From the NCBI GenBank assembly GCA_029210585.1, contig JARGFP010000006.1, forward strand, positions 7,949 to 71,948: a DNA stretch of 64,000 nt. The letters run 5' to 3'. Both the position numbers and the translations under genes were made by a program. Below, one piece after another: positions 1 through 21,546 of the stretch; within the stretch, counting starts at the first letter, position 1; each line of letters opens with the position of its first letter. The notes under the pieces were generated by a model that saw nothing but the letters and a program-made list of their open reading frames with translations, was not told the origin of the DNA and did no database searches. This DNA is from Bacteroidales bacterium. GTDB lineage: Bacteria; Bacteroidota; Bacteroidia; Bacteroidales; GCA-2748055.

Positions 1-1457
1 AACAGGATTGAATCCTGCAACCCGGGCAGGGAAGGAATTTTAAATTCAGTGGACAATTCCACGTTCCCGCAGCCAAGGGCGTGCACCCCGATATTGTTGT
101 TAAAAGCAAGGTCTTCAAAGAATACATAGTCATAGAAAACACCCGTGGTATCTGTATATGCCAGGTATTTTTCGTTCCGGGGAACAATCGAATCCACCGC
201 CAGGGTGCTTGAGCTCATCCCATGTTTGAGCACGGCAAAGGCCAGGTTGGGTTTGCCTGCACGATTCACTGCTTCGGCATAGCGCAGGTACAGCATCGCC
301 ACGCGATACACCGGGACCGCCCTGGAAATGTCGGTTGCCATCGTTGTAAATTTGGTGATCTGGTTCATTGTCCGGTCCACATCCATAATATCGTTGGTTT
401 CGATCACCGGAGATGATTCCGGGCTGAGATAGGACCCCATGTCCCCCCGCAGGTCACCTGGTCTCTGAACAGAGGCGGTATGGTAATAGGTTTGGTCATT
501 CCATGTGTCGATGGCAGCTGAAGAGGGAATGATTTCAGGATCGAACCAGGTGATACTGTCCAGGTAGGCTCCCTCCCCAAATTCGGCAGAACCAGCGATC
601 AGGGTAATCTGTTCATAATTGGTAAGTGTAAAGATATAGGGCCAGCCCTGGTTCTCGGGCTCTCTCGACACGAAAACACCATTATCCACTTCCCACAATG
701 ATTGAAAAAAGTCGTCGATCGTATAGGTCTCCTCCTGGATAAGGGCGTAGAATTCACCAGCTGCTTTCTCATAATCACCGTTCCAGAGGTAGAGTTCACC
801 CAGGACCATGCGGACGGGAAAAAAGAGGACATCACTGGAGAGGTCAGCGCCCAGGGAAATTCCCCCGGGAAGGTCAACATCCGTCCATGGGGCAAGATCA
901 TCAATCAATTCAGGTACAAGTGCATCAAGGGTGTACTCAGCAGTTTCCACTTCTTTGTTCACATACAAAACAGGCTCGGTATAATACTGTACAGTACCAT
1001 AGTTAAGTGCTGCCTGCATATAGGTCCAGGCGCGTATGGCCTTGGCAGCGGCAAATTCCTTGTACATCACTTTTTCTGCGTTTGCAGTCAGTGCTGTATC
1101 AATTATGGTTATGAGGTAATTGCAATGATTGATCACCGCATAATAGTCTTCCTGCCGGTTGAATGGATTCTCTGTTGTGATTTTGAAATCATTGATCTCC
1201 TGCAAAAAGGGATCCGCATTGGAGGTGACATCCATCAAATCGCCACGAAGTTCCCCCAACAATATGTACCGGTCTGCAAGTTTCTCAAGCTGGGTAAAAA
1301 TACCGATCATGGAAAAGATCGTATCATTTGGAGAATTCAGCTGATGGTCACCGGGGTATACCAGCCGGTCTGAATCAACATCCAGCAGGGTGTTGCATCC
1401 CATCGCCAATACTGCAAGTAGCGCAGGTACTGTAAATATTTTGGTCAGTTTCTTCAT
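1..1457 (-). CDS. RagB/SusD-family outer-membrane lipoprotein (N-terminal ~485 aa; 3' end runs off the left edge)
   Basis: Absent from the ORF track because it is open at the window edge. The reverse-strand ATG at 1455-1457 gives MKKLTKIFTVPALLAVLAMGCNTLLDVDSDRLVYPGDHQLNSPNDT (lipoprotein signal plus Cys). I hand-translated the same frame at positions 3-137 and found no stop. It lies 68 nt downstream of a SusC-type gene, the canonical susC-susD order. Confidence 0.8.
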   Translation of the reverse strand, partial: MKKLTKIFTVPALLAVLAMGCNTLLDVDSDRLVYPGDHQLNSPNDTIFSMIGIFTQLEKLADRYILLGELRGDLMDVTSNADPFLQEINDFKITTENPFNRQEDYYAVINHCNYLITIIDTALTANAEKVMYKEFAAAKAIRAWTYMQAALNYGTVQYYTEPVLYVNKEVETAEYTLDALVPELIDDLAPWTDVDLPGGISLGADLSSDVLFFPVRMVLGELYLWNGDYEKAAGEFYALIQEETYTIDDFFQSLWEVDNGVFVSREPENQGWPYIFTLTNYEQITLIAGSAEFGEGAYLDSITWFDPEIIPSSAAIDTWNDQTYYHTASVQRPGDLRGDMGSYLSPESSPVIETNDIMDVDRTMNQITKFTTMATDISRAVPVYRVAMLYLRYAEAVNRAGKPNLAFAVLKHGMSSSTLAVDSIVPRNEKYLAYTDTTGVFYDYVFFEDLAFNNNIGVHALGCGNVELSTEFKIPSLPGLQDSIL

Positions 1458-1525
1458 TTTTTTCGTGTTGGTTTAACCGCATATCTCAATTCCTGAAGAG
1501 AGATGCAGTAATCATTCGCGATCGT

Positions 1526-4500
1526 TTACAAATCCATTTTAATACCGATTAGAAAAGTCCTCGTGTGCGGTGTCAACCCTGTATCAATGCCCTGGAACAA
1601 CACGGAGGGATGGGCCGATACCTCTGGGTCGCGCCCCAGGTAACTGGTCAGGGTCCACAGGTTGCGCGCAGCAACCCAGATGTCCATTCCGTCAATCGCG
1701 CTGTTATTGACCGGGATCCTGTAGCTGACAGAAAGCGATTTTAGCCGCAGGTAGGAACCATCTTCGATCCACCGGTCCGAAAAACGTGCATTTCCCATGG
1801 GATCCTGGTAAACAACACGTGGCTGGCCGGTTTCCTGTCCTTCATAATACCAGCGATTCAGTACCGCTGTGGTCTGATTCATGAATCCGCTACCTGCTTC
1901 AAGTTCCGAACGCAGGTAATTATAGATGTCATTTCCATAGGAAAAGGTAAAAAATGCTTCGACTGTAAAATCCCAGATGGAAATTTTACTGCTAAAGGAG
2001 CCGTAAAGATCAGGATTCGGATCTCCAATGATCTGTTTGTCATTGTCATTGATGATCCCATCTGCCATTTCATCTGCAAAATACATATCGCCGGCCCCGA
2101 ATGCATGCGTTGCACCGGTTGAATCTGTCATCACCAGGGGATCCGCTTCCACATCGGATTCACTGGTGTATACGCCATTGGTCCTGTAGCCATAAAACAC
2201 ACCTGCAGGATATCCTACCCTGGTCAGAATCTCTGCATCATATGCAGACGTTACGATATCTCCATCAGGCAGGGATTCGATCCTGTTCCTGTAATGTCCG
2301 ATACTCATACCAAGCTCCCACTTCAGAATATCCAGGTTCAGGAGTTTTGCATTTGTATAGACCTCAAAACCCTTGTTGGTCATTTCACCGCCGTTGTTCC
2401 AGTAGAACCCGCTACCCGCAATTAATGGCAGCGATTGAAGTGTGAGCAGGTTACTGATTTTATTGTTGTAGATATCAGCTGAAACAGCAATGCGATCGTT
2501 GAACAGATTCGCATCCACGCCAACACTCATTTTTGTCGAAGTCTCCCATTGTATTTCCTCATTACCAATATTCCCGATAATGAGCCCGTTGGCCCGGTCC
2601 ATATAGCGTGTCGATGTGAACCAGGGACTCCATGCATAAGGGTCAATGCCATCGTTGCCGGACTGGGAAATGCCACCGCGAATTTTCAGACGATCAATCA
2701 ACGTTGCATTGGCCATGAATTCTTCAGAAGAGAGCAACCAGCCGGCATGCAGCGATGGAAAAACACCCCAGCTGCGATTGAACAGTTGCAGGCCGCCGAT
2801 GGTTGCATTCCCGAAACGTGAGGATCCGTCCATGGCAACTGTGGCAGTGACAAAATAACGGTTATCGTAGCTGTAATCTGCATTGAGGAAGTTTGAAATT
2901 GATTTTATCTCATTATGCGCCCCGCTGGTACTTCTGAAATCTTCTTCATTCAGTAAGTTTCGTTTTTGGTCGGATCCCGAATTATGTCCTTCGGCATAAT
3001 CCAGTTCATAACTATCAGATATATAGCGCCAACCTGCGATGGCATCCAGGCGGTGTTTGCTGTCTGACCGGTACCTGTACTCCAGGCGGGTCTCGTCAAA
3101 CAAAGTGATGTTGCGCATTTGCTGACTTTTGAACACATTCTCTGATAATCCCAGGCCGGGCAGGTAGCGGTCTGCGACGCCTATGATCGGACTGTAGTAG
3201 GTTTCCTTGAACCTGTCGAGGCTGTAATCAAACTGCGAACTGAGCGACAGCGATGGGGCGAGCTGAATTACAGGTTTGGCACCCAGGTTCAGCCGGTAGT
3301 GTTTATTTGTATTCAATGCTTTTTCAATGATCGCAGTCGGGTTCCCCACATTGAAATCATCACTGTCGACCACATCTGTGGTCAATGTGCCGGAGGCAGT
3401 GTATGAATAAGGATTCAGGAAGGGGGCCTTGATCATGGCCAGGTAGGCTGGTGAGGTATAGAACTGCACGCCATCATCGAGTAAATTACGGTCCACATTG
3501 GTAAATCCAACATTCAAGGCCATGTTGATTTTATCGGTCATGACAAAATCAGCATTGAACCGTGTATTGAGCCGCTGCAGGTCGGTGCTCTTCACCACTC
3601 CTTTGCTTCCTGTATACCCCATGGTAAAAGCATAGAGCGCCCGCTCATCTCCACCTTCAACGCCGATGTTGTAGCTTTGTATATTGCCCTGCTGGTATAC
3701 CTCATCCGCCCAGTTGGTGCTGTTATGATAGGTATTATAGTCCAGCCTGGTCGGATCATCCTGCAGGTAACCCAGTTCGTTGATCTGCATGCCGGGCATA
3801 TCCGTAGATCCCAGCAAATCAGTAACATATAGCCTGAACTGATCTCCATCCATCATCGGCAGGATGCCGGGTTGTTCTACGATCCCTCCCAGGGCATTCA
3901 CGGTGATCTTGGTGGCCATGTCCCTTCCCCGCTTCGTTTTTACAAGGAGCACTCCGTTTCCTCCTTTACTGCCATACATGGAGGTACCGTCCCTGATCAC
4001 AGTGACGCTTTCAATGTCGTTCACATCAATATCCGCAAGCTTATTGATAAAATTACCTGCATGCAGGGAAACCAGGTCGTGGTATGTATTCCATACCACA
4101 CCATCCACAACAATCAGAGGCTGTGCATTGAGATTGAGCGAGTTCAGTCCCCTGATAAACATTCTTGAACCATTCCCTGGCGCACCGGAGGCTGACAAGA
4201 TCCGCACCTCTCCGCCCAGGCGTTCCTGTAATACTTCATCCACAGAAATTTTAGACGGTGGCCCTATTTCATCCAGTTCTCCCAGGGCATTTGTTGCATA
4301 TGTACTCCGAACAGGTCCTGTGATCCCCTGTATGTCCCTGTACAAGTCTGTAAATACATCCGGATACAGTTCGATGCGCAGGTCCTTTTTCCCCTGAACA
4401 GGTATTTCCCTGGGATTATAATCGTATGCGAAGACAAACAACACTTCATTCTCAGAACCTGCCTCAATTGTGAATTCCCCGTTTTCATCAGTTGTTGCAG

Positions 4501-4735
4501 CGGCCAGGTGATTAAGCGCCCGTACCTGTACCGCTTCAAGGGGTGTTTTTGTTGCTGCATCAAGAACGAGCCCTTTTACTGTTACTACTGAATCGCCTGG
4601 TACCTGGCCGGTCTGACCGGAAACAGAAGTAAAAAAACCCAGTACCAGGAAAGCAAATACCTGGCGTCGTATTTTTTCAGGTAAGATAAACCCTGTTGTG
4701 CTTTTGATGATCATATTTTTGTTCATTAGTGCCAT
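1526..4735 (-). CDS. SusC/RagA-family TonB-dependent outer-membrane transporter (pair 1)
   Basis: 1069 aa with an ATG at 4733-4735. Signal peptide, then a carboxypeptidase-regulatory-like N-domain (VTVKGLVLDAATKTPLEAVQVRA). Plug region (IESVTVIRDGTSMYGSKGGNGVLLVKTKRG). Long beta-barrel with a typical SusC C-terminus (YLRLKSLSVSY ... GIDTGLTPHTRTFLIGIKMDL). Confidence 0.93.
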   Translation of the reverse strand: MALMNKNMIIKSTTGFILPEKIRRQVFAFLVLGFFTSVSGQTGQVPGDSVVTVKGLVLDAATKTPLEAVQVRALNHLAAATTDENGEFTIEAGSENEVLFVFAYDYNPREIPVQGKKDLRIELYPDVFTDLYRDIQGITGPVRSTYATNALGELDEIGPPSKISVDEVLQERLGGEVRILSASGAPGNGSRMFIRGLNSLNLNAQPLIVVDGVVWNTYHDLVSLHAGNFINKLADIDVNDIESVTVIRDGTSMYGSKGGNGVLLVKTKRGRDMATKITVNALGGIVEQPGILPMMDGDQFRLYVTDLLGSTDMPGMQINELGYLQDDPTRLDYNTYHNSTNWADEVYQQGNIQSYNIGVEGGDERALYAFTMGYTGSKGVVKSTDLQRLNTRFNADFVMTDKINMALNVGFTNVDRNLLDDGVQFYTSPAYLAMIKAPFLNPYSYTASGTLTTDVVDSDDFNVGNPTAIIEKALNTNKHYRLNLGAKPVIQLAPSLSLSSQFDYSLDRFKETYYSPIIGVADRYLPGLGLSENVFKSQQMRNITLFDETRLEYRYRSDSKHRLDAIAGWRYISDSYELDYAEGHNSGSDQKRNLLNEEDFRSTSGAHNEIKSISNFLNADYSYDNRYFVTATVAMDGSSRFGNATIGGLQLFNRSWGVFPSLHAGWLLSSEEFMANATLIDRLKIRGGISQSGNDGIDPYAWSPWFTSTRYMDRANGLIIGNIGNEEIQWETSTKMSVGVDANLFNDRIAVSADIYNNKISNLLTLQSLPLIAGSGFYWNNGGEMTNKGFEVYTNAKLLNLDILKWELGMSIGHYRNRIESLPDGDIVTSAYDAEILTRVGYPAGVFYGYRTNGVYTSESDVEADPLVMTDSTGATHAFGAGDMYFADEMADGIINDNDKQIIGDPNPDLYGSFSSKISIWDFTVEAFFTFSYGNDIYNYLRSELEAGSGFMNQTTAVLNRWYYEGQETGQPRVVYQDPMGNARFSDRWIEDGSYLRLKSLSVSYRIPVNNSAIDGMDIWVAARNLWTLTSYLGRDPEVSAHPSVLFQGIDTGLTPHTRTFLIGIKMDL

Positions 4736-4750
4736 GTAGATTTATATGCC

Positions 4751-6289
4751 TCACTCTAATACAGGTTCCAGGATGATGCAATCGATACGCATCGTTCTGG
4801 AGAATTCTCCGGATTGCTCTTCAACAGCAGTGACATCATTGATCACTTCCAATTTTACAGCGATCCTTTCAAATTCATCGGAAATTACATTCGCGAACTC
4901 GAAATCAAATTGTGTGACCAGCATTTTCATCATGCCAAAAGGCAGCGTGATATTATCCTCCGGCGTGATCCTGCTTACAAAAGTACTGCCGCTGGTCCTG
5001 CGGATATAGGTAAGCACAAACCTCGCCTTGGTTGGAATAAAGTCCAGGGGGTTCACAATGGATGGCGGAACGAACACGCAATAGATGTTGTATTTTGCTG
5101 AGAGTGTATTCGGTATGGAAAATTCAACACTGGGATCTGCCGAAGTGGGGTCCACCAGGATGTAGTTGTTTTCCGAAACATCCAGACCTGAACCATAGCT
5201 GCTGCGGGGAAAAATATTGCTGTTTACATTGATCCTGCCTTCCTGATCTTCTGCCTCAATGCGGATCTCCCGGAACCATGAATCGGTATCGGAATAAGGC
5301 ATCCTGGAGGTTACATGGGCCAGCCCGTTGCTCAGGGGTACCTGGTCGGTATTGCTGAACAGGCTGCCCGGATTATCAAATACAGTTCCGGTTGTGGAAA
5401 CAAGGGAATCAAGGCTGGAGGGTTCTGAAACAACCCCTTCAAACAGCATGTCCTGCACCAGGGTAAATTGAGATTCCTCGCGTTGCCGCTCCCTGCCGCC
5501 TGCATCTTCGGGGAAGTTGAAATAGGGTTCGATCCGGCTATATGCCTCGATCCATGCAGTATTATCCGGAAAAATCGCAGTGTATATGCTGTCTTCGTTA
5601 TCGATTGCCCCTATCTCGTCCAGCACGGGATTGCTGAAGATAAAAACCGTGTCATATACTGCCTGGCCATCTTCATTGACCCCGATCTCCACGCTGTTGA
5701 CCGGATCAAAGATGTTTCTGCTCTGGCCAAAGAGGTACGTGCGAAGCGAGTCAAGGGTTTCCTCTTTCCCGATAAACTCCCAGAGGTTATTCTGATAGGG
5801 TGCATATCCGTCGATCACGTGAAGCAATCCATTAACAGCAGGGGTATTCACTTCAAGCACATTTGAATTCCCGAATGTGTAGCCAGCAGCTTCACGCGAA
5901 AAATAGATGAATTTACCGTTCAACATGCGGATTGCCTGTTGATCAACTCCTGTAGTGGTATAGCGGCTCCTTGCAATATGATTACGAACGATATCCAGCA
6001 CCAGGTCTGCATTGGTCGTGTCCAGTCCTGCAAGCGCGGCATTGCTGGGGGCCCATACTGTAAAGGATTGTGATGCATCAAGAAGCTGGTCATATCCCGA
6101 GATTTTCAGCATGCCGGAAAAGGTGCTTAATCCGGGATGCTCCCGGATATGCGCTGTCAGAGTCTTGTCAGGCAAATTGAACGATCCCGGATCGTAATGT
6201 TCGCTCCATTTTTCCGTGCATGCAGTACCCGTCAACACAAGGGCCATCAGCGCACAGGGCAGGAAACATTTGAGATATGTACTTTTCAT
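4751..6289 (-). CDS. Fasciclin (FAS1)-domain surface lipoprotein with C-terminal beta-sandwich-like region
   Basis: The ORF track extends to 6421, but that extension overlaps the upstream gene. The ATG at 6287-6289 gives MKSTYLKCFLPCALMALVLTGTACTEKW (lipobox). FAS1 H1/H2-like motifs are FTVWAPSNAALAGL ... GLLHVIDGYAP. A second, degenerate copy is YTAIFPDNTAWIEAY ... GLAHVTSRMP. The C-terminal ~150 aa (IRIEAEDQEG ... MRIDCIILEPV) looks like a CBM-type beta-sandwich. Confidence 0.8.
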   Translation of the reverse strand: MKSTYLKCFLPCALMALVLTGTACTEKWSEHYDPGSFNLPDKTLTAHIREHPGLSTFSGMLKISGYDQLLDASQSFTVWAPSNAALAGLDTTNADLVLDIVRNHIARSRYTTTGVDQQAIRMLNGKFIYFSREAAGYTFGNSNVLEVNTPAVNGLLHVIDGYAPYQNNLWEFIGKEETLDSLRTYLFGQSRNIFDPVNSVEIGVNEDGQAVYDTVFIFSNPVLDEIGAIDNEDSIYTAIFPDNTAWIEAYSRIEPYFNFPEDAGGRERQREESQFTLVQDMLFEGVVSEPSSLDSLVSTTGTVFDNPGSLFSNTDQVPLSNGLAHVTSRMPYSDTDSWFREIRIEAEDQEGRINVNSNIFPRSSYGSGLDVSENNYILVDPTSADPSVEFSIPNTLSAKYNIYCVFVPPSIVNPLDFIPTKARFVLTYIRRTSGSTFVSRITPEDNITLPFGMMKMLVTQFDFEFANVISDEFERIAVKLEVINDVTAVEEQSGEFSRTMRIDCIILEPVLE

Positions 6290-6308
6290 ATTCTGTTTCT
6301 TTTCGGAC

Positions 6309-8282
6309 TTAATAGATATCTTCGTATTCCAGTACTTCAACCGGGACAAATTCGAGGTAATCGAACATGAACTCACCTGCGCGCACTGCTTTGACTGCAA
6401 AGGTATGTGTGCTTGCTTCATTGAATGTAAAAATGCCCAGGATGCGCCGCAATGCGGCCGGGCTCATACGTGCACTTGCCCCGCTGTACCAGGCGGTATT
6501 GATCACTTTAAAGCTGGCCGGCCCTTTCATGTATCCACGGTTCCGCATCATTTTGTCATTTTCGAATCCTTCCGGGTCAGCCGGGTCCAGGCCGGGTTGA
6601 ACGTAGCCAATCTCTGGTTCACTTGCATAAATCCGCAGGTCCAGCGGAATTCCTGTCGGCTTGCCATCCCAGTACAGCTGGGCGGCGCCCCTGAAAATCG
6701 TTGGCTGGTATCCGAACCTCACTTCGTAGGTGCCTGCCGGAATGGGAGGAGTGGTTATTTCAAAATCGTACAGTCCCTGCAGCCAGACCTCGTCCCCCTG
6801 GTAGTCACAAAAACGGTCATCGGCATTGTAGTACGCAAAATTTGTGGTTTCGGAGGTTTTGAGCCGCTCGATGTACCCCCTTGGAAAATACCACATCTCT
6901 GAAGGGTAATCGGGGGTGGCATGCCCCACCCGGATATTGTTGTTGGTCAGTTCCGGAAAGAAACTGGCTGCATCCATGCGCAAGCGCTTGCTGGAGATCA
7001 TCCTGTCCACCGCCTGCGAATACGCAAGAATGTTGTCGATTTCATGGTATACGCCATTCACGGCATCATTGTCAAAATTCTCTGTCAGGCGGATCACATC
7101 ACCGCTTTCCGGTATCATGTTGAACTGGTTATACTCGCTGGTGGTCCGCAGGGTACGCACTTCGAGCAGTGTATTTGGACACAAGGTCTCGATATACTCA
7201 AACATATCCACGGTCTTGATGGAATGGGTTTCACCCCTGGATTCATAGAACTGCCCGGTGTTGTCATATTTTTCAATGAACAGCCTGCTGGACAACTTCT
7301 TATTAATCAAGTGGTAAGCGACAAATCGGTTCAGGCTGTTCCTTCGGTCCGTAATATCGGTAATGGAAGCATCTTCAGGATACATCAGGTCATAGACTCC
7401 CCTTGCATATTCCTTCATGTCCTCCAGGTCGTTAATACCCGCATTGGCGTAGGTGGCATTGTTTTCCATCAGGGCAGTAAAACCGTACTTGCGTTCCTTT
7501 GGTACATGTATGATACTTCCGATGGGATAGAATGTCCCTTCTCTTTCCTCATACAAACTTCCCGGATCATAGGTTTCATCCTTGATGGGAAGCAATTCCC
7601 GGTCGAGGCCCGTTGCAATCAATGCTTCAAAGAACAGGGAAAAGTCGTCATCTGCAGCAATGGCTTCAATGAGGGTATTTTCCGTTGGTGAAAGCACCTT
7701 GTTGATGGTATGCACCACACCGTTATGCACCTCAATATCCCTGGCGCCTATCACAGAGGTGGTATTTACGCGATATAAAAGGGTACTCTCACCCGGCTCA
7801 AAACTGATTTTGAGATAACGACCGCTCATGGTCAGATTGGGAAGAAAGCCATCGACAAATTCATCCGAAGTCACGATAAAATCGCTGATGATGTGGTCAT
7901 ACGCGATTTTTTTCAGTGTGTCAGCGGTAAAATCATCCAGTGAATTCTTGCCCTTGGAATGGTAGAAATTAAACATTGCCTCGTTGTCCGGGAGAAAGCA
8001 GGTATATTTTCCATAGGCATTCAATAATCCCATCACACCACCTAACTCAAGCATCCGGGAAAATTCTGAATAGGTTTCAGGCCGATTGGCAATATAGTCA
8101 CCCATGGTCTCCCCTGTAAATGTGTAGTAGGTGTCCCCGACATCATCGCTGTCGCATCCAGCCAGAAGACCAGCCAGGAGGACTGCGATCAGCAGATAAC
8201 TGCCAAAAGAGCGATACCAACTTGAAATAGGTCTGCTGTTTTCCGGGGTTTTGCCTTGTATATTCCTTCTATTTATCTTCAT
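6309..8282 (-). CDS. Fasciclin (FAS1)-domain surface lipoprotein, two FAS1 modules plus C-terminal beta-sandwich-like region
   Basis: 657 aa with an ATG at 8280-8282. Lipobox LLAGLLAGCDSDD. FAS1 motifs are YTCFLPDNEAMFNFY ... GVVHTINKVLSPT and GVYHEIDNILAYS. The C-terminus reads AGTYEVRFGYQP ... FMFDYLEFVPVE. Confidence 0.8.
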   Translation of the reverse strand: MKINRRNIQGKTPENSRPISSWYRSFGSYLLIAVLLAGLLAGCDSDDVGDTYYTFTGETMGDYIANRPETYSEFSRMLELGGVMGLLNAYGKYTCFLPDNEAMFNFYHSKGKNSLDDFTADTLKKIAYDHIISDFIVTSDEFVDGFLPNLTMSGRYLKISFEPGESTLLYRVNTTSVIGARDIEVHNGVVHTINKVLSPTENTLIEAIAADDDFSLFFEALIATGLDRELLPIKDETYDPGSLYEEREGTFYPIGSIIHVPKERKYGFTALMENNATYANAGINDLEDMKEYARGVYDLMYPEDASITDITDRRNSLNRFVAYHLINKKLSSRLFIEKYDNTGQFYESRGETHSIKTVDMFEYIETLCPNTLLEVRTLRTTSEYNQFNMIPESGDVIRLTENFDNDAVNGVYHEIDNILAYSQAVDRMISSKRLRMDAASFFPELTNNNIRVGHATPDYPSEMWYFPRGYIERLKTSETTNFAYYNADDRFCDYQGDEVWLQGLYDFEITTPPIPAGTYEVRFGYQPTIFRGAAQLYWDGKPTGIPLDLRIYASEPEIGYVQPGLDPADPEGFENDKMMRNRGYMKGPASFKVINTAWYSGASARMSPAALRRILGIFTFNEASTHTFAVKAVRAGEFMFDYLEFVPVEVLEYEDIY

Positions 8283-13282: not shown

Positions 13283-13283
13283 T

Positions 13284-15830
13284 TTATTCAAACCTCAGTA
13301 CTTCGTCAATTTGATGAATGACGGCTGTTGATGAAGTTGTTATGGATGATGCATTGAAATCAGCGCCGGTGCCCGTTCCATCAACCTCCCTGTAGGCCAG
13401 TGGATTATTGCTGAAAATATAATCGCGGACCATCATGTTGTAGAGGCCATTATCGGTAACGACCCGGGCGGTGCCATAGTTTTCGGTTGAGAGCTGCAGG
13501 TTGTCCCCATTGCCGGAGATCCCCAGCCTGTAGTACTTGTCTTTGTATGTTCCGAACTGTGTTGTTTCCTCGTCCATTTTGATGGTAGCGGTCTGGTAGA
13601 GCTTGTCCACCGGTGTGCCACTGATGTACACTGAATTGTCCTGGAAATGATACCTCAGGAAACGTTCCAGTTTTTTTATCTCTTCTGCACGGGCCGAAGT
13701 AGTGTCCGGCATGCCGTTGATCTCCTCCCAGTCGCTGATCAGGTTATCATCAATTGCCTGCCGGATTGCTTCATTGGTAGGTACATACACCGTGTAGTTA
13801 AAGGTATTGAAAAACTTGATATTGAAGTCGATCCCGTAGTAATTGGTTTTCTTGACGAACACCTCGTTCGTTGTACCTGTCAAACCGTTCAGCAACAGGA
13901 AAAACTCACTGAATTCAGGGGTTTCGCTCAGCACCCTGTACACTGATCGAAGGGGTGTCTGAATGGGTTTGTCGATGAAATAGGTGATCCCGTTTTGTTG
14001 TTCAAAGACTCCGTTTGGCACCACATTCACTGCGATACCCCTTACGATGTCATTGCCTCCCTGCACCTGCAGGTTGTCCCCGGTACCCTGTACCTTGATT
14101 GAATTCCCGTTTTTGGTGAAATAATACTGTTCCCCGGATTCCACATCGCCCACTACAATGTGCGAATCAAGGACATCCAGCAACCTGTTGGCAATGAAGC
14201 TCCGGTCAGTAATCACGGCAACGGAATCTCCCACGATATCATTCACGGCATCATAGGCATAGATGGTGGCATTTACCCTGCTGGTCTCTGTATTGTACCA
14301 GTATTTCATCACTCCCTTCACATCCTTGGCGTAGGCGACCGGATCGATATAGTTATTAAAAAACGCATCGGTCGGGACAAACAGGCTGTACCGGCTCACA
14401 AGCGAGTTCAGGTAGAGCCTGAAGTCGTTTTCCCGGATCACCCAGTTAAATACCCGCGTTTTCTCACTGAAAAGAACCGGTCCGTACACCGAAACATAAT
14501 CGTCAGGCGGATATACTTCATCTGTCTGGTATACCACACCGTTTACGCCCACATAGGTACTTTGCACATCGGAAGTGACAACAGGAATAGGAGAATTTTC
14601 GCTGTCATTCATTTTATCAAACCTGCTCGGAACAGTCTCGATAAAGGAAGTCCTCAGGTGTCGCTTAAGAAAAAGCATCACTATATCGTCCGGAATGCGG
14701 TCCCAACTCCCATAGCGGTCACGCAGCACGATCCCGCTGCCTGTTTCAAAATAGGCATTCATGGCTGCATCGGAAGGACTCAGAATTGCTGCCATATCCG
14801 ATTGCAGGGCACTGCCTGCGCCAGGGGGCACATAACTGTTCCTGCCCGGATTAAAGGGCAACAGGAATTCGGTGCTGATCAGGCTCCCGTTGGGATAACG
14901 CACTGCCCCGTCGACGGCAGAAAAGTATTGTTTTTCATAGATGGAGTCGATCGGCTGGTCCGGATTGACCTGGTTATACTCAATGGTCTGGTTGTCGTTA
15001 AAATAGGGTGCGCTGAAACGTTCCAGCAGGCTGGAAAAGATCTGGGTGTCCGGGTTCCTTCGCAGGTGCTCAGCAATATTGACCGGTGGGATCAGCACTT
15101 CTTCCAGCACATGGATATATCCGTTCTTACAGGTAATGTCCCGCTCGACCACCTTGACATTAAAAATATGTGCATCAGTCTGTTCCCGTTCCGCGCCGGT
15201 GATCAGTGTAAAATCACTGTTACTGATTCCGGCGTTTGAAAGCGTGCTTGGCAAAAAATGCACCATCGGCCAGGATGTGGCATCTTTCAACAGGTGGATT
15301 CCCTGGGTGCGAAATCCATTCCAGACAGGTCCTTGTGGCAGCATATCTCCCGATTCAAATGGAATGCTGTCCAGCACGGATACTGCCGTTTCGCGCCTGA
15401 GGGCTGTTCCCAGTTGCAGGCTCCCGTCGAAATAATTGGAGAGTGTTTCGACCAGGTACGCATTATTGATCATCGTGAAGTTGAGGATCAGCTTTTTCTG
15501 TGACACGGAAAGGTCGTCATAGCTTCCCACATTCCATTCATTGTCCTGGAAGAAACGATCAAATGCATCATCATCGGCCACAAACAACGTTTTGCTGCCC
15601 GACTTTGCAAGCACAGAGGTATACCCGATATCGTCAATCAACCTTGTATAATTGGTAAAATTGCCATCTTCCACCAGGTAATCATAGATACTTGCGCCGA
15701 GCCACTCCGGCTCACTGTCGTCATACAAATAATCGTCCTTGCACGAAACAAAAAAAACACTCATGCCCAGCAAGAGTGTGGCAAGGAAGAGAGGATAAAT
15801 ACTTTGTTTCCAGGATCCTTTTTTCATCAT
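13284..15830 (-). CDS. Multi-FAS1 (fasciclin) lipoprotein, about four FAS1-like modules
   Basis: 848 aa. Lipobox MSVFFVSCKDD. Four H1-like/H2-like pairs: TLFVADDDAFDRFF ... GYIHVLEEVLIPP; AAILSPSDAAMNAYF ... GVVYQTDEVYPP; SLFVPTDAFFNNYI ... GITYFIDKPIQTP; YTVYVPTNEAIRQAI ... AVIHQIDEVLRFE. Confidence 0.8.
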   Translation of the reverse strand: MMKKGSWKQSIYPLFLATLLLGMSVFFVSCKDDYLYDDSEPEWLGASIYDYLVEDGNFTNYTRLIDDIGYTSVLAKSGSKTLFVADDDAFDRFFQDNEWNVGSYDDLSVSQKKLILNFTMINNAYLVETLSNYFDGSLQLGTALRRETAVSVLDSIPFESGDMLPQGPVWNGFRTQGIHLLKDATSWPMVHFLPSTLSNAGISNSDFTLITGAEREQTDAHIFNVKVVERDITCKNGYIHVLEEVLIPPVNIAEHLRRNPDTQIFSSLLERFSAPYFNDNQTIEYNQVNPDQPIDSIYEKQYFSAVDGAVRYPNGSLISTEFLLPFNPGRNSYVPPGAGSALQSDMAAILSPSDAAMNAYFETGSGIVLRDRYGSWDRIPDDIVMLFLKRHLRTSFIETVPSRFDKMNDSENSPIPVVTSDVQSTYVGVNGVVYQTDEVYPPDDYVSVYGPVLFSEKTRVFNWVIRENDFRLYLNSLVSRYSLFVPTDAFFNNYIDPVAYAKDVKGVMKYWYNTETSRVNATIYAYDAVNDIVGDSVAVITDRSFIANRLLDVLDSHIVVGDVESGEQYYFTKNGNSIKVQGTGDNLQVQGGNDIVRGIAVNVVPNGVFEQQNGITYFIDKPIQTPLRSVYRVLSETPEFSEFFLLLNGLTGTTNEVFVKKTNYYGIDFNIKFFNTFNYTVYVPTNEAIRQAIDDNLISDWEEINGMPDTTSARAEEIKKLERFLRYHFQDNSVYISGTPVDKLYQTATIKMDEETTQFGTYKDKYYRLGISGNGDNLQLSTENYGTARVVTDNGLYNMMVRDYIFSNNPLAYREVDGTGTGADFNASSITTSSTAVIHQIDEVLRFE

Positions 15831-15856
15831 CAGTCATTTTTAAGAGGTTTGATCCC

Positions 15857-18616
15857 CTATTTTTTAATGAACCTGGCAGGTTGGTTACCAGTCGTTCTCA
15901 ATATATACATTCCGGCAGGAAGCGCACTTATATCTATTGCATGCAGTGCCTCTGCCCCGATAAGCTGATGCCCCGTAACATCATAGATCTCATACCGGGT
16001 GGGACGGTCCAGATCGATGTACAGCACATCATCCACAGGATTGGGATACAGTTTCAACGACCGGACCGAAGGGGAAACATGTGTCCCAATCACCTGTCCG
16101 GCAGCCAGGTCCACCACCATCCAGCCCAGCTGGTCTTCTTTCACAGTGGCGATTCCGCCTGAAAACTCGCGTTGTTTGAGCAGGTTAACGGTATGATCGC
16201 CGGTGCGGTTATAACGCATGGTTGCAGCAAAATTATCGGCTGCGGTCTGCAAACCGGCAAAGAACGCCGGCTGGGTGTAACTGGAATCGTACGACAGTTC
16301 CATTGGCCTGGAAGTCACCCCGCTGCCATCCACTGTACGTCCCACCGTGATGCGTTTCCCTTCGATGTCGCCCTGTCCCTGTTCAATGGCCAGCACGTGG
16401 ACCGTTTCAGGAAAAACAGGCCCGGTATAGGCTTCTTCTGCCTTCAACAAGAGATCAAAACCCGTATGCGATACATTCTGAACAGCCACTGTTAACGGGG
16501 ATGTATTGGCTCCGGAGGCGATGGTGCAGAATATGACGGGGTCCCCTGCAAATGGCTGTTCGAACTGCACACTCAGCCATTCGTCCTGCACATGGGTTAT
16601 TTCCATTGCTAAAGCGTTCAATTCACCAAAATCATGCGCTCCGGGAGGTATGGCAATGACTGCAATATTGTCGGTACCGGTAAAGACAGGATCCTTCAGG
16701 TATGCCCAGGGTAAGAGATGAAATTTAAACCTGGAGCCGGAAATATTGCTGACCCGCCGGGTCATGGGAAATACATTGTTAAATGTAGGAATGCCCAGCA
16801 CCACAAGCGGATTTTCAGCATATGCTTCTGAAAAAAGCGTGGTGTTCCATTCCGCATTGCTGACCCTGAAAGTTCCGGACTGCACATTGCCTGCCCCACC
16901 GGTCTGGAAATAGGATACCTCATTGGATACCAGGTATTCCCCTTCCTTTGTCTGGAGCCTCAGTCTGTAAGAAACCGTACCCCCTGTACCAGCATCGAGC
17001 GGATCCAGGAAATAATCTACTGCAATGTCATCGCTCGAATAAACGGTTTCAAACGCCCCGTCATTCACTCTTTTTTCCAGCGTATATCCTGCCGTCAGCT
17101 CTCCATTGCTGTCGGTCCAGCTTAACCGCATGCTGTTGGATAACGTAAGGTACCTGAGTGAAAGTTCCGGTTCCAGGTAATTCCAATGCGGAATCACTTC
17201 ATTGGCGGAGTTGTACGCGATTTGTGATTCATTCTCCTTGTAGTATGCACCTGCCAGGGTTACTCCCCCGTTGAGGATCATGGCGCGACAATCCTGTACC
17301 CAGTCGTAAATGAAATAGCGTTCCACGAAGCTGGCCGTATCGAGTACCTGCAGGATGCCTTTGATATCATTGAGCTGTTTCAGGGCATTGTCATCTGTAT
17401 AGCTTCTGTTGCCATCGGGCCACCATTCATTCGTCCAGTTTGCTCCATTGTTCCATTCCGTGATCCACAATGGCCTGCCTGTCTGCTCATGGATATATTT
17501 CAGATCGTTGTACCAGCTGATGGGTGATTTCCCTCCCCAGTAACAATGTAGCGGGACAAAATCAACCCGGTAATTCAGTGCATCGCATGTATTGATAAAA
17601 TCAAACAGGTTTCCGCCATCGCCTCCCCGGGCATTGGACCAGGCCGGGGCGCCTATCCGGAGACCGGAGTTCATCATTGCCGGCCAGATGTCGATCATCT
17701 GCTGGAAGGTCATGTTCGCCTGGTCGGGCCGGTCAGGTTCGTTGAATCCCAGCAGGTGACTCACATTTCTTTTTGCGTTGATGTCAGACCAGGAAGGCCA
17801 TCCGGCGTTCTGCCTGATCAGCACATATTCAACATCTGAAGAAGAATTCCCCCCCACATTCCAGTCGTAATAGCTCGTACAATCGAGGTCGTGGGGATTC
17901 CAGCCGGCTTTGGCCTTTTTACTGACAAACTCGTGTCTGAACACCCTGACAAATGATGCGGTACTGTAGAGTTCAGCCGGCATTGTAATGAATTCAAGAT
18001 CCTCCTGGTCCGCAATAAAGACCCGGCTGTACCCACTTCCGTCAGCGTTATTGGCAAATGTTGCCATGTACCCGCGCTTCAGCCTGAATGAGCGAATGGC
18101 ATTGTCGAATTCACCCAGGCTGTTGTGATAGATATGCAGTCCAAGTTGCCTGGGGGTACCGGCAAATGCATCCCCGCTGTAGACGGTTAAGGGTGAAAAT
18201 GATGCACCATGAGGCATGATCACCGTACCATGACCGTAGATGGCCACCCGTCCGTTGGTTCCATTTACTAGATGGGTGCCATTGGCCAGGACTCCGGAGA
18301 GATGCCTGCTGATCACCTCCGAGGGTTTGATATTGTCGAAAAAGAGCCACGCATCCTCGTGATCCAGGGATACGGTGCTGTTCATCATAGGAGCATCAGG
18401 TGATGTAAGGTGCAATTCAGCCGGTTCGGCAAGCACCCTGTTCTGGTCAACAAGACTTTCCAGCGTTTCCTGCGGAATGGAAAGCAGGGAAACGGGCACA
18501 ACAGCCATGATTAGTATGGATAGAAATGTATGCTTCCAATTCTCCCACCTCCAGCAGTACTCTCCTGTTGGTCCAGTACACGAATCGTTCCGTGTACCAT
18601 TAAGCGTATATTTCAT
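15857..18616 (-). CDS. Secreted clan GH-A glycoside hydrolase (Glyco_hydro_cc/PF11790-like catalytic core) with Ig-like modules and a T9SS C-terminal sorting domain
   Basis: 919 aa. The catalytic core is aa ~235-395: SYYDWNVGG, LLGFNEPDRPDQANMTF (NEP acid/base, Glu codon 17738-17740), VDFVPLHCYWGG, PLWITEWNNG (TEW nucleophile, Glu codon 17456-17458). The C-terminus LKLYPNPVDDVLYIDL ... GMYILRTTGNQPARFIKK is a type A T9SS CTD. Confidence 0.78.
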   Translation of the reverse strand: MKYTLNGTRNDSCTGPTGEYCWRWENWKHTFLSILIMAVVPVSLLSIPQETLESLVDQNRVLAEPAELHLTSPDAPMMNSTVSLDHEDAWLFFDNIKPSEVISRHLSGVLANGTHLVNGTNGRVAIYGHGTVIMPHGASFSPLTVYSGDAFAGTPRQLGLHIYHNSLGEFDNAIRSFRLKRGYMATFANNADGSGYSRVFIADQEDLEFITMPAELYSTASFVRVFRHEFVSKKAKAGWNPHDLDCTSYYDWNVGGNSSSDVEYVLIRQNAGWPSWSDINAKRNVSHLLGFNEPDRPDQANMTFQQMIDIWPAMMNSGLRIGAPAWSNARGGDGGNLFDFINTCDALNYRVDFVPLHCYWGGKSPISWYNDLKYIHEQTGRPLWITEWNNGANWTNEWWPDGNRSYTDDNALKQLNDIKGILQVLDTASFVERYFIYDWVQDCRAMILNGGVTLAGAYYKENESQIAYNSANEVIPHWNYLEPELSLRYLTLSNSMRLSWTDSNGELTAGYTLEKRVNDGAFETVYSSDDIAVDYFLDPLDAGTGGTVSYRLRLQTKEGEYLVSNEVSYFQTGGAGNVQSGTFRVSNAEWNTTLFSEAYAENPLVVLGIPTFNNVFPMTRRVSNISGSRFKFHLLPWAYLKDPVFTGTDNIAVIAIPPGAHDFGELNALAMEITHVQDEWLSVQFEQPFAGDPVIFCTIASGANTSPLTVAVQNVSHTGFDLLLKAEEAYTGPVFPETVHVLAIEQGQGDIEGKRITVGRTVDGSGVTSRPMELSYDSSYTQPAFFAGLQTAADNFAATMRYNRTGDHTVNLLKQREFSGGIATVKEDQLGWMVVDLAAGQVIGTHVSPSVRSLKLYPNPVDDVLYIDLDRPTRYEIYDVTGHQLIGAEALHAIDISALPAGMYILRTTGNQPARFIKK

Positions 18617-18756
18617 AGTTGAGTAGTTAGCTAAGTAGTTACCTGTCTCTTTTTACTTTCGAACAGGTCAAACAACAATACTAAAATAATGTCTCCAATA
18701 AACAAGTTCTATCAATATTCCGGCAAAAAATGTCTCTTATTCGCAATTTGGTCGTT

Positions 18757-21546
18757 TTACTGTTTCAGTACCTTACCATTATGCACCTGTATCCCGTTCA
18801 CCACAACCTTGTAGAGGAATACTTTTCCTCCTCCATATGTTGCAATATCGTTGAAAATAAACTGTTGGTAACCTGTTTCACAATCACGTACCTGCATGCT
18901 TACCACCTGTCCGGTCAGATTGGTCAGTACCACTTTCACTTCGGCAGCCCGGGACAGGTTCATCCCTATGGTAAAGCTTTCAGTGAATGGTACCGGGTAT
19001 GCCACAACGGAAAGTTGCTCATCCGGTTTTCTTTCTCCGAATCCTACATCGGTTAGCAGGGTGGTAAACATTTGCTCTGCGCCATAGCTCGTACCCATGT
19101 CATTCATGGCATAGGCCCTCACATAATAATCCGTTCCAGGTTCCAGCCCGGTCAGTTCACGTGCGAAAGTTCCGCCTCCTGATCCTGCAATGATCTTTGC
19201 CCCGGTAAGTTCAGGTGACGAACCGGTACCCAGGAAGAATCCATTTTCAATGATTTCGGCTCCTCCGTCATCGAGGACATTTCCTTCGGCTGTCGCAGAC
19301 TGCCTGGTAATGCCCGTTGTTTTCAGTGTAGCCACAGCAGGCAGGGCATTTTCCGTCAGCGTGGTGAAGCTTACCAGGTTGCCATATACAGTGCCCAGGT
19401 CACTGATCGCATACGCCTGGATATAATGAACCTGGCCGGAAACAAGGTTCGATAATTGCATGTAAAAGTTTCCGGTACCGCTTCCCAGGTCAACTTTCAC
19501 TCCTTCCGTCACGGGATCAGGCGTTGTGCCTATGTAAAGTCCCCGTTCCCTGACCGTGCTGCCTCCTTCATCTGCCACAAATCCCCCGACGATCGCTGAA
19601 ATGTTGGTTATTCCGGTGGCAGCTGTAGTAGTAACGGTTGGTAGACTCAGGTCTATTGCCTCAATCGCATCGATCTGTTCATCGAACCAGTCGATCCTTT
19701 GGGTAATCCACTTGTAGAGGTAATCCACCTCGTTGTTGTAGGTGCCCCCTACATAGTTATTGGGCCACACATAAGTATTCAGCACGTCCCAGACTGCAAA
19801 ATTCCTCTGCTGGGCTTCTGAGAGCAGGGTGGCAGCTGAATCGATCACATGATAGATCCGGCCCTTGCTGATCACGTTCTCCGTTAATTCTTCCCATCTG
19901 TATTTAAGCAGGGTTTCAAAATAGGGATCTGTTCTTAACCTGTCCCACCAGAATGGTATTTCGTAGGCATCACCTCTCCCGATACCATCTGATGCCCATC
20001 CCACCGGGTCGCCTGCATCAAAGAAGTTGGCGTTCCCAAAACAGATATTGTAGTCCCAGAAAGGAGTCATCACGAGTTTACCTCCTTTGCTGTCCTTGTC
20101 CTTGTGGAAATAAACGCTGACCCTGTACCCATCCAGGTCCTTGCTGAGTTCTGTTATAATAAAATAATCGATAAAGGAGATCACATCGATGTACGCCCTG
20201 TACCCCAGCTCCGGATCCCTGTAGTTCTCTCCATGCAGGGCATACTCAAATTCGGTGATGTATTCCCTGATATATGCCCGCTGTTCGGGCATCAGTTCGT
20301 CATATTTCGGGTCGACGTAGGAAAATGGAACATCTACGCTGCCTGTTCTTCCCATGAACGGGGAATTCCAGCTTCCAAACTGATCCCGGTCAATGCTGAT
20401 GATGTATCCCCCGGTGAGCTGATCGCCTGATATATCTTCGGGATAGAGCCGGGCAATGTCCACCCGGTCGTTGTCGATTTTGATCTTCTCAGCACAGAGA
20501 TAGACGCCCCGGTATTCGCCATTGATCTCCAGTTCCACGAACCGTGTACGCGGATGCCATTCGTCGCTCATGACATTCCCGATATTGTAGGCCAGCATAT
20601 TGCGCATCAGGGATTTATCGGAATAGGGACCATGAAACACCCAGTCATTCTCAACGGGCATGCCCAGCAGCGATACGTTGTTGTTCTCACCGGTACTGAG
20701 CCGGGTCTCAACGGTATAGCTCTTCTTAGGGAACATTTGTGCCGTATTGCCCCGGATTTCGATTCCGATAAAACCATTATATGTGTATACCGTGTCGTCA
20801 AAGAAATTCCTTCCCCCGGGCTGGTCGATCACTTTCATGGTACCCGTGATTTTCGGCTCATCCGGGATGCTTTGTCCCGCGGTATTGATCTTCACAATGG
20901 GAAGATTCGAGGATTCGAAGGAAATGGGTACCTTGAACCACGCGGGTGTTTCATGAAAGATGGTCTGATCCGAATCGATTTCAGCATGCAGGAAAAGCCG
21001 GGCAGACAGGTCCGATGAACTCAGATCCATGTTGAGAATATGTACTGCCAGGAGGTTGGCACCATCGTTCAGGACGGCAGGATCCAGGGCAAATCGTTCC
21101 GGCATACCGCCACTGTACATGCCTGTCTCGTGATCGTAGGTAACCGATCCGCTGATGGCAGGGGTTCCTGCGAGCAGGTTTGCCGACCGTGCCACCTCCA
21201 TTCCGTTGATATACGCAACAAAAGCATCGTCGTAGTCGATATCCAGGACCAGTTGACTGACATTAACCGTTGTGGGCAGGTTCAGTTCCTTCCTTATATA
21301 TATGGAGGTTGTTGCCGGCACAATGGTCCGGTCATCCCCGTCGCCATAACCGAATCCTCCCCTGCCGGAGTCCCAGTTTCCATCATTGAATTGTAACTGC
21401 ATCCAGTCACCGGGCGGTTCGTTTTCAGGAACCAGATATGTAAACTGGTCGTCTTCCAGCACGAGACTTTTCCAGTGCAGTTGAGTGCCTGCCGGCGATA
21501 CTGCGCTGAAAAAAGCCATTGATATAAGAAGATACAGTTGCTTCAT
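18757..21546 (-). CDS. CotH kinase-fold family protein, secreted (N-terminal beta-sandwich, CotH domain, two ~95-aa repeats, T9SS CTD)
   Basis: 929 aa. The CotH-type core is aa ~212-625 (YSDKSLMRNMLAYNIGNVM ... TRFVELEINGEYRGVYLCAEKIKIDNDRVDI ... FWDYNICFGNANF). Two tandem repeats are aa 635-730 and 735-830 (TTGIT..SA...G.V.D.GG......G...GT...P). The C-terminal VVAYPVPFTESFTIGMNL ... LYKVVVNGIQVHNGKVLKQ is T9SS CTD-like. Confidence 0.8.
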   Translation of the reverse strand: MKQLYLLISMAFFSAVSPAGTQLHWKSLVLEDDQFTYLVPENEPPGDWMQLQFNDGNWDSGRGGFGYGDGDDRTIVPATTSIYIRKELNLPTTVNVSQLVLDIDYDDAFVAYINGMEVARSANLLAGTPAISGSVTYDHETGMYSGGMPERFALDPAVLNDGANLLAVHILNMDLSSSDLSARLFLHAEIDSDQTIFHETPAWFKVPISFESSNLPIVKINTAGQSIPDEPKITGTMKVIDQPGGRNFFDDTVYTYNGFIGIEIRGNTAQMFPKKSYTVETRLSTGENNNVSLLGMPVENDWVFHGPYSDKSLMRNMLAYNIGNVMSDEWHPRTRFVELEINGEYRGVYLCAEKIKIDNDRVDIARLYPEDISGDQLTGGYIISIDRDQFGSWNSPFMGRTGSVDVPFSYVDPKYDELMPEQRAYIREYITEFEYALHGENYRDPELGYRAYIDVISFIDYFIITELSKDLDGYRVSVYFHKDKDSKGGKLVMTPFWDYNICFGNANFFDAGDPVGWASDGIGRGDAYEIPFWWDRLRTDPYFETLLKYRWEELTENVISKGRIYHVIDSAATLLSEAQQRNFAVWDVLNTYVWPNNYVGGTYNNEVDYLYKWITQRIDWFDEQIDAIEAIDLSLPTVTTTAATGITNISAIVGGFVADEGGSTVRERGLYIGTTPDPVTEGVKVDLGSGTGNFYMQLSNLVSGQVHYIQAYAISDLGTVYGNLVSFTTLTENALPAVATLKTTGITRQSATAEGNVLDDGGAEIIENGFFLGTGSSPELTGAKIIAGSGGGTFARELTGLEPGTDYYVRAYAMNDMGTSYGAEQMFTTLLTDVGFGERKPDEQLSVVAYPVPFTESFTIGMNLSRAAEVKVVLTNLTGQVVSMQVRDCETGYQQFIFNDIATYGGGKVFLYKVVVNGIQVHNGKVLKQ

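Follow-up and report, generated by a model that had tools for sequence, protein, structure and literature searches.

The 64,000-nt stretch of DNA analyzed here, hereafter the window, comes from an uncultured Bacteroidales bacterium near Prolixibacteraceae (assembly GCA_029210585.1, contig JARGFP010000006.1, positions 7,949-71,948 of the forward strand) and carries a polysaccharide utilization locus (PUL) built around three fasciclin-domain lipoproteins and two SusC/SusD transporter pairs. The conserved unit consists of seven genes, FAS_A-SusC1-SusD1-FAS_B-FAS_C-SusC2-SusD2, and not of the nine that an earlier note on this DNA had described as one atypical operon. Loci of the PUL kind are known as such; the fasciclin/twin-transporter core is strongly conserved, widespread, and essentially undescribed. 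Our preferred reading, held with moderate confidence, is that of a PUL regulated by a hybrid two-component system (HTCS), in which the seven genes form an outer-membrane cassette whose most likely target is a laminarin-type or decorated β-1,3-glucan.

A conserved cassette of fasciclin lipoproteins and paired transporters

The open reading frame (ORF) listing places nine successive genes, all on the minus strand, between positions 1 and 21546. In reading direction, the cassette begins with FAS_A (13284-15830, 848 aa) and continues with SusC1 (9998-13282 or 13291, ~1090 aa), SusD1 (8295-9857, 520 aa), FAS_B (6309-8282, 657 aa), FAS_C (4751-6289, ~512 aa), and SusC2 (1526-4735, 1069 aa). It ends with SusD2 (<1-1457), which is partial, being cut by the window edge. 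Ahead of FAS_A lie a CotH gene (18757-21546, 929 aa) and a gene for a GH128-like protein of family PF11790 (15857-18616, 919 aa). The intergenic distances reported previously for this run (140, 26, 1, 140, 12, 19, 15, and 68 nt) are reproduced when SusC1 starts at ATG 13282 and FAS_C at ATG 6289. The latter start suits the length of FAS_C homologs, 503-514 aa in the gene calls of relatives; for SusC1, the ORF permits 13291, ATG 13282 or 13267 is likelier, and the gene call of a relative gives 1089 aa. Pfam and NCBIfam searches confirmed every domain assignment of the earlier note, and its view of a PUL-type locus with an unusual, binding-protein-rich layout is supported.

Homologs of FAS_A, which opens the cassette and is its best-conserved gene, number more than 1805, nearly all of them full length and 57-95% identical, from Prolixibacteraceae, Marinilabiliaceae, and related metagenome-assembled genomes (MAGs). 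When one genome was scanned for each species, at least 577 loci with a gene for a FAS_A relative emerged, which places the cassette among the commoner uncharacterized PUL layouts of anaerobic sediment and digester Bacteroidales. Locus comparisons drew on the best 80 of these at least 577 loci (designated by L numbers), which belong to Prolixibacteraceae, Marinilabiliaceae, and Paludibacteraceae, and several of the genomes among them carry two or three copies of the cassette. Gene order was counted by searching the window proteins against the ORFs of the 54 loci with at least 9.5 kb of downstream sequence. The six-gene order FAS_A-SusC1-SusD1-FAS_B-FAS_C-SusC2 was found in 48 of the 54, the six deviating loci differ solely by an added or lost FAS gene, and SusD2 is the final cassette gene in every relative inspected. 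Since the same order recurs in so many independent loci, the arrangement is far beyond chance, and the accidental juxtaposition that the earlier note had still allowed for is disfavored. Most gaps between cassette genes measure 12-20 nt, and the 140-nt gap between SusC1 and SusD1 is down to 16 nt in Maribellus.

SusC1 is a SusC/RagA TonB-dependent transporter (TIGR04056, E 1.8e-219), and SusC2 matches the same family (E 1.4e-176) with Plug, barrel, and CarboxypepD_reg-like domains. SusD1 is a SusD/RagB-like lipoprotein (PF07980, E 1.4e-24; PF14322, E 4.8e-17), as is SusD2, with Cys21; the Pfam matches of SusD2 itself fall below threshold, and its homologs of 545-552 aa carry PF07980. The earlier note had spoken of two complete pairs, which holds for the first, whereas SusD2 has no stop codon in the window, where 485 of its ~550 codons are present. 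The two SusC proteins are 27% identical and the two SusD proteins 22% over the N-terminal half, and the two pairs are ancient paralogs and not products of a recent duplication.

Tandem SusC/SusD transporters were termed puzzling in a study of the Flavobacterium johnsoniae chitin utilization locus, ChiUL. There, CusDI and CusDII, at 27% identity, differ in the oligomer length that they prefer, and growth is crippled only when both pairs are lost (PMC5127042). ChiUL resembles the present locus in joining two divergent SusC/SusD pairs (SusD identity 27% there, 22% here) and a multidomain enzyme exported through a type IX secretion system (T9SS). It differs in its chitin substrate, its GH18/GH20 enzymes, its classical two-component system, and its lack of fasciclin lipoproteins, and also in the order of the pairs, between which an enzyme gene is placed. 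The invariant pairing of two distant SusC/SusD systems in the cassette offers a clean system for asking why many PULs carry tandem transporters.

The Fasciclin domain (PF02469) was detected in three proteins with scores of 70, 67, and 56 bits (cut-off 22) and E-values of 2.8e-19 for FAS_A, 2e-18 for FAS_B, and 6e-15 for FAS_C. Each has a lipoprotein cysteine with acidic residues after it (C30-KDDY in FAS_A, C43-DSDD in FAS_B, and C24-TEKWSE in FAS_C), and Cys30 of FAS_A is invariant among its homologs. In Bacteroidota, such a Cys-plus-acidic pattern, the lipoprotein export signal, marks surface-exposed lipoproteins, and we infer that all three FAS proteins are exposed at the cell surface. FAS_B and FAS_C follow SusD1 directly and would in this way show the hallmark of a surface glycan-binding protein (SGBP), namely a surface lipoprotein encoded beside susD. 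None of the three matched SusE/SusF or another described SGBP family in Pfam or NCBIfam. Fasciclin was the sole family past the domain threshold, with FAS_A also reaching DUF2642 at the whole-protein cut-off, and the NCBIfam search gave no match for any FAS protein.

By their H1/H2 motifs, FAS_A contains four FAS1-like units and FAS_B and FAS_C two each. The N-terminal FAS1 parts are homologous in profile comparisons (98.5% and 96.9% probability), the hhalign match between FAS_B and FAS_C (98.5%) covering the N-terminal part only. A relation between the C-terminal domains of FAS_B and FAS_C was rejected, since profile-profile comparison found none, and these parts matched no Pfam family even at relaxed thresholds. 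FAS_B has a 100% identical counterpart, MDF1571123.1, in a MAG labeled "Bacteroidales bacterium". Its AlphaFold model (pLDDT 83, pTM 0.81) comprises two FAS1 domains followed by a β-sandwich at ~430-650. In Foldseek searches, the FAS1 pair resembled TGFBIp, periostin, and fasciclin I (E ~1e-14; TM (target) 0.78-0.85), while the sandwich resembled the xanthan-binding module 7EHG (E 1e-4, TM ~0.6), with other matches of the carbohydrate-binding module (CBM) type at E up to 1e-3. Among these other matches were xanthan lyase 6F2P and accessory domains of GH115, GH87, and Pc1,3Gal43A. No CBM-like module comparable to that of FAS_B was found in FAS_A or FAS_C.

Because of the lipoprotein signals and of the CBM-like sandwich in the FAS_B model, the FAS proteins can be put forward as candidate glycan-binding proteins. 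They share the FAS1 fold and its tandem arrangement with the eukaryotic TGFBIp, periostin, and fasciclin I, and differ from these as predicted bacterial outer-membrane lipoproteins encoded in a nutrient-uptake operon. Our literature searches found no paper linking fasciclin proteins to SusC/SusD systems, PULs, or the T9SS. If these lipoproteins bind glycans or act as scaffolds, the Sus paradigm would gain a further class of proteins, and bacterial FAS1 domains a concrete function. Furthermore, the FAS1 genes can serve as a recognition mark for this locus type in PUL annotation pipelines of the kind that marks non-CAZyme genes as "unknown". The fasciclin lipoproteins and the obligatory coupling of two SusC/SusD transporters merit experiment.

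Predicted extracellular proteins and the extent of the locus

The GH128-like protein matches PF11790 (Glyco_hydro_cc, E 4e-25), H_lectin, Por_Secre_tail, and TIGR04183. It is arranged as a 230-aa N-terminal domain, a GH128 catalytic domain (~233-458), an FN3-like domain, one or more H-type lectin-like domains, and a T9SS C-terminal domain (CTD); the N-terminal part has no Pfam family at relaxed thresholds. The catalytic domain matches the GH128 structures 6UAQ/6UAR in the PDB (6UAQ, E 3e-20) and retains both catalytic Glu motifs, FNEPD at 291 (NEP) and ITEWN at 385 (TEW), as expected of a GH128 member. It thus has the NEP and TE(W/Y) motifs of the GH128 β-1,3-glucanases (PDB 6UAQ-6UB1), from which the whole protein differs as a 919-aa T9SS cargo with additional N-terminal, FN3-like, and H-lectin-like domains. 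To our knowledge, all characterized GH128 members are β-1,3-glucanases. In 31 of 67 loci, a GH128-like gene directly precedes FAS_A, within 4 kb upstream, and its distribution agrees with the clades of the FAS_A tree. The ORF opens with a Cys/Trp-rich stretch of ~35 aa (CTGPTGEYCWRWENW) ahead of a hydrophobic, signal-like segment; this N-terminal extension may be real, since the total length of 917-919 aa is kept in relatives.

Upstream of the nine genes, an AT-rich divergent spacer of 238 nt (21547-21784) separates CotH from a plus-strand gene (21785-25444) and is probably a bidirectional promoter region. The latter gene encodes a 1219-aa protein with Laminin_G_3, Cadherin-like, and TIGR04183 domains and without a PDB sequence match. 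T9SS proteins of this Laminin_G_3/Cadherin-like class are recurrent partners of the cassette. A type A CTD was recognized in three proteins of the locus, by TIGR04183 in the GH128-like and LamG/cadherin proteins and by a custom hidden Markov model (HMM) in CotH. T9SS machinery genes were not recognized in the scanned parts of the window, to which this search was confined.

Next to the LamG/cadherin gene, on the minus strand, lies a gene for a GH43 lipoprotein (25504-26658, 384 aa). It matches PDB 6EUG over its full length (E 1.8e-129), structures deposited as galactan 1,3-β-galactosidase or exo-β-1,3-galactanase (7BYS, E 2.5e-52; 5FLW, E 7e-38), and the related 3VSF (E 1.5e-62), whose deposited name is 'Ricin B lectin'; 6EUG, 7BYS, and 5FLW represent the GH43 exo-β-1,3-galactanases. 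Presumably, the enzyme belongs to subfamily GH43_24, whose exo-β-1,3-galactanases are used by arabinogalactan PULs of Bacteroides. Its tie to the cassette is one of adjacency, similar genes occurring near the cassette in ~4 of 55 loci. Beyond it, the minus-strand gene at 26908-31131 encodes an HTCS of 1407 aa (Reg_prop, Y_Y_Y, HisKA, HATPase_c, Response_reg, and HTH_AraC), which is presumed to regulate the locus.

The genomic features that mark a PUL are present: two pairs of adjacent susC-like (TIGR04056) and susD-like genes, co-localized carbohydrate-active enzymes (the GH128-like protein and GH43 here, with GH43, GH2, and GH128-like genes recurring in relatives), and a regulator linked by adjacency. 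On this gene content, the locus appears to span positions ~1-31131, beyond the earlier nine-gene boundary. The description of the locus as enzyme-poor stands for the first 21,546 nt, where Pfam detected no SusE/F, CBM, lyase, or esterase family, and is in part a boundary effect, with the LamG/cadherin, GH43, and HTCS genes just upstream and further LamG and GH43-like genes after SusD2 in relatives. The locus probably also continues beyond window position 1, because a 95% relative (L087), used as a stand-in for the sequence past the window start, has further LamG genes beyond SusD2; LamG proteins lie downstream of SusD2 in L089 and L090 as well. In L087, the segment at 11851-18696, past SusD2, carries first a gene on the opposite strand for another LamG/Cadherin T9SS protein, of 1264 aa, and then one for a protein combining LamG, aBig_2, and a GH43/GH32-like propeller.

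Pfam annotation of the 161 nearest upstream neighbor ORFs of the cassette loci gave Laminin_G_3 (34 ORFs, in many of which aBig_2, Cadherin-like, or T9SS domains also occur) and GH43 (19) as the most frequent families, with GH2, CBM26, GH88, and GH44 occurring occasionally. HTCS genes flank the cassette, on either side, in L010, L028, L056, L061, L069, and L089. A gene for a TPR protein of ~289 aa is also common beside the cassette, TPR families matching ~19 of the 161 neighbor ORFs. In many loci (for instance, at 8529-9398 in L004 and 8435-9304 in L023), its place is immediately ahead of FAS_A or of the GH128-like gene; one whole clade of the FAS_A tree that lacks GH128 carries it, and it is absent from the window.

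The CotH protein carries a CotH domain (PF08757, E 6.5e-51) at residues 262-620, preceded by a signal peptide and an N-terminal β-sandwich-like region that matches no Pfam family at relaxed thresholds, and followed by two ~95-aa repeats and a T9SS CTD. The earlier note had called both proteins at the head of the nine-gene run T9SS-secreted. The GH128-like protein passes TIGR04183, and the CotH signal, below the Pfam and TIGR thresholds, was recovered only with the custom HMM, built on the C-terminal 85 residues of 25 CotH homologs (residues 846-929, E 6.5e-12). Because this HMM matches the end of CotH as well as the genuine CTDs that the GH128-like and LamG proteins carry, CotH is very probably a T9SS cargo. 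A single-sequence PDB search with CotH gave no match, and it took a family profile to reach B. cereus CotH (5JD9, E 5e-6). Throughout 19 sequences, D472 and W497-D498 do not vary, in line with the Asp residues of the CotH family, and we infer, on a C-lobe alignment to 5JD9 that has low confidence, that they form the motifs of the catalytic loop and of metal binding. Window CotH shares the fold and the conserved Asp with this Bacillus spore-coat kinase, and differs in being a predicted T9SS-secreted protein not associated with spores.

A conserved place for CotH at the head of the system was not borne out. Near the cassette, a gene with a full CotH domain was seen only in the 95% relatives L001 and L003 and in L023, L047, and L077; counted within 10 kb upstream, ~3 of 55 loci have one (2 above the phmmer score cut-off). 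It is on the opposite strand in L047 and L077, and the closest non-identical clade, L007-L011, is without it. CotH is accordingly a sporadic, lineage-specific accessory gene, and its role as a defining part of the system was rejected on grounds of synteny. The CotH repeats (~634-830) were the top-scoring part in a search of 1.8 billion proteins, where giant proteins, 1-6 thousand residues long, contain them in 5-25 copies; a further match is to the N-terminal part of the BT0360-type arabinanase model.

Substrate and proposed working of the locus

The earlier note took the locus as a candidate for an undescribed glycan or glycoprotein capture system. This has to be revised in part, as an apparent ortholog in Alkalitalea saponilacus has been linked to laminarin (PMC13591233), and stands in so far as the fasciclin genes were ignored there, the words fasciclin and T9SS having 0 occurrences in the paper. 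PUL 10 of this species, predicted by PULDB, comprises CDL62_12280-12355, with GH128 (CDL62_12280), SusC (CDL62_12310), and SusD (CDL62_12315), followed downstream by two GH16_3, GH43_34, GH2_1, GH31_3, and GH97 genes; the CDL62_12310/12315 pair was induced on laminarin, and not on xylan, in reverse-transcription quantitative PCR (RT-qPCR) (PMC13591233, 2026). The A. saponilacus locus in our set (L005, CP021904.1) has the order GH128, FAS_A, SusC1, SusD1, FAS_B, FAS_C, SusC2. The induced pair would correspond to its SusC2/SusD2, since the locus tags rise in steps of five along this order. In the sister genus Natronoflexus, two LamG/cadherin genes follow SusD2, which fits two unnamed PUL 10 tags ahead of the first GH16_3.

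By gene count, PUL 10 thus has GH128 followed by the same FAS_A-SusC-SusD-FAS_B-FAS_C-SusC-SusD block as the window. It differs in an FN3-repeat protein at the position of CotH and in its downstream enzymes, whereas the window has an exo-β-1,3-galactanase-type GH43 and an HTCS upstream. Window proteins are 43-65% identical, over their full length, to their Alkalitalea and Natronoflexus counterparts, and in a neighbor-joining tree of FAS_A the window falls within a clade that bears GH128, itself part of a larger clade that holds Alkalitalea. Taken together, these comparisons indicate a β-1,3-linked glycan as the most likely substrate, and a laminarin-type or decorated β-1,3-glucan is favored because of the GH128 family and the laminarin induction of the apparent ortholog. 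The GH128-bearing subclade can provisionally be tied to β-1,3-glucan turnover.

The locus might then work as follows. The T9SS-secreted GH128-like and LamG/cadherin proteins, joined by CotH in this lineage, would attack a β-1,3-linked glycan outside the cell. The three surface FAS lipoproteins would take the place of SusE/F-type SGBPs and hold the polymer or its oligosaccharides at the transporters, with the CBM-like module of FAS_B possibly kept off the membrane by its two FAS1 domains, which would act as a stalk. The two dissimilar SusC/SusD pairs could import products of different size classes or with different decorations. Exo-enzymes of the periplasm or bound to the cell, the GH43 lipoprotein among them, would finish the degradation, and the HTCS would sense an oligosaccharide product. 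Reportedly, the levan and dextran utilisomes and the β-glucan SGBPs of Bacteroides follow a comparable plan, with a SusC/SusD core, extra surface lipoproteins after susD, and an HTCS sensor. Unlike these SusE/F-type utilisomes, the present locus has FAS1-based lipoproteins, two obligatorily linked SusC/SusD pairs, and enzymes that are predicted T9SS cargo and not lipoproteins. In a bolder and rather unlikely version, the cassette would encode a single obligate hetero-oligomeric machine, a "twin utilisome", in which the three FAS lipoproteins bridge and feed both SusC/SusD pairs and dock the T9SS-anchored LamG and GH128-like proteins, with CotH acting on the substrate in some lineages, either in a non-kinase role or by extracellular phosphorylation. 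FAS1 proteins would in that case form a new and widespread class of surface scaffolds or glycan binders.

Several points weigh against the preferred reading. The laminarin link is an RT-qPCR result for one SusC/SusD pair, and the mapping of locus tags onto PUL 10 is gene-count arithmetic. The two GH16_3 laminarinases of Alkalitalea were not encountered in the window or in the reachable part of the 95% relative, and the exo-β-1,3-galactanase type of the window GH43, together with the H-type lectin domain, points to galactan over glucan. For the fasciclin proteins, literature searches found no report of glycan binding by any bacterial FAS1 protein, the ~170-aa C-terminal domain of FAS_C has no family assignment, and the FAS_A model, built on a 15-sequence alignment, reached pLDDT 52 and was left out of the fold search. 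The nine-gene run, a putative transcription unit, contains two 140-nt gaps.

The galactan evidence leads to an alternative in which the same PUL machinery, in this copy, serves β-1,3-galactan, the backbone of type II arabinogalactan or arabinogalactan proteins (AGPs), with the GH128-like protein acting as an endo-β-1,3-galactanase. The close match of the GH43 beside the HTCS to 6EUG, 7BYS, and 5FLW would fit such a substrate, as would the lectin domain of the GH128-like protein, H-type lectins typically binding Gal/GalNAc, and the GH43, GH2 β-galactosidase, and DUF2264 genes found between or beside the GH128-like gene and FAS_A in L051, L063, and L065-68. A link of DUF2264 to GH154, for which no confirmation was found, is left out of account. 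However, the PDB matches of the catalytic domain are GH128 structures, from a family with no characterized galactanase that we know of, and the GH43 and HTCS genes possibly form a separate transcription unit. Gum arabic, moreover, did not support growth of A. saponilacus, whose apparently orthologous PUL responded to laminarin (PMC13591233). On balance, a galactan substrate for this copy is improbable, if far from negligible. Very doubtful is the proposal that CotH is the integral head of a CotH/FAS1/SusCD glycoprotein-capture system, with a kinase-fold protein that modifies or recognizes the substrate before uptake. CotH does precede the GH128-like gene, in the same orientation and at a distance of 140 nt; its putative catalytic Asp residues and T9SS CTD are retained, and CotH-domain T9SS genes occur beside the cassette in three unrelated loci (L023, L047, and L077). 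Against this stand the rarity of the gene near the cassette, its absence from clade L007-L011, and its reversed strand in two of those three loci; extracellular kinase activity is also doubtful, as little ATP is available outside the cell.

Still less probable is the idea that two independent PULs (FAS_A-SusC1-SusD1-FAS_B and FAS_C-SusC2-SusD2) stand side by side, or that the genes met by chance. Low identity between the pairs (22-27%), the 140-nt gaps, and the frequent clustering of PULs would agree with it, but the order is kept across at least three families and in paralogous copies, with extra or missing FAS genes as the only variants, and the intergenic gaps are short, that between SusC1 and SusD1 included in Maribellus. 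The least probable of all is a non-glycan system, either a RagAB-like importer of peptides or proteins or an adhesion module in which the FAS proteins serve attachment. FAS1 is a classical adhesion module, with TGFBIp and periostin as the nearest structures, and the cassette itself contains few enzymes; yet its constant neighbors are GH128-like, GH43, GH2, and LamG/CBM-type proteins and HTCS regulators, no peptidase is among the neighbor families listed, and both the CBM-like domain of FAS_B and the laminarin induction of the apparent ortholog speak for a glycan. The β-1,3-glucan PUL with its seven-gene cassette is retained as the preferred reading.

Other genes of the window

A scan of positions 1-20000 for sigma-70 promoters and terminators gave the same counts as shuffled sequence, the sigma-70 consensus being inapplicable to Bacteroidota. 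The rest of the window holds genes for a sulfatase, UvrB, sigma-70, an HtrA-like protease, central metabolism, and uronate metabolism, with no evident link to the locus. Divergent from the HTCS gene, a plus-strand ORF of 315 aa (31228-32175) without a Pfam match overlaps convergently by 4 nt with the sulfatase gene (32172-33701, minus strand); it was compared with the TPR gene of the relatives and is not the same. Between the sulfatase gene and a gene of the endonuclease/exonuclease/phosphatase family lies a minus-strand gene (33814-35223) for a 469-aa protein with an adenylate/guanylate cyclase and an HD domain.

Further along, the minus-strand gene at 43173-45149 encodes a 658-aa protein with SASA (sialate O-acetylesterase-like) and GH2_N-like domains, and L088 has a comparable SASA/GH2_N gene (16203-18044) some genes downstream of its cassette. 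Genes at 46236-52807 (minus strand) and 55299-58184 (plus strand) comprise some for hexuronate catabolism (UxaE-like, UxaC) and a series for central metabolism, with 6-phosphogluconate dehydrogenase, 2-hydroxyacid dehydrogenase, a LarA-like protein, and phosphofructokinase. At 58452-62664 (plus strand), a gene for a 935-aa DUF5686 protein, whose CarboxypepD_reg-like N-terminus is a module shared with SusC, is followed after a 1-nt gap by one for an Nramp-like transporter.

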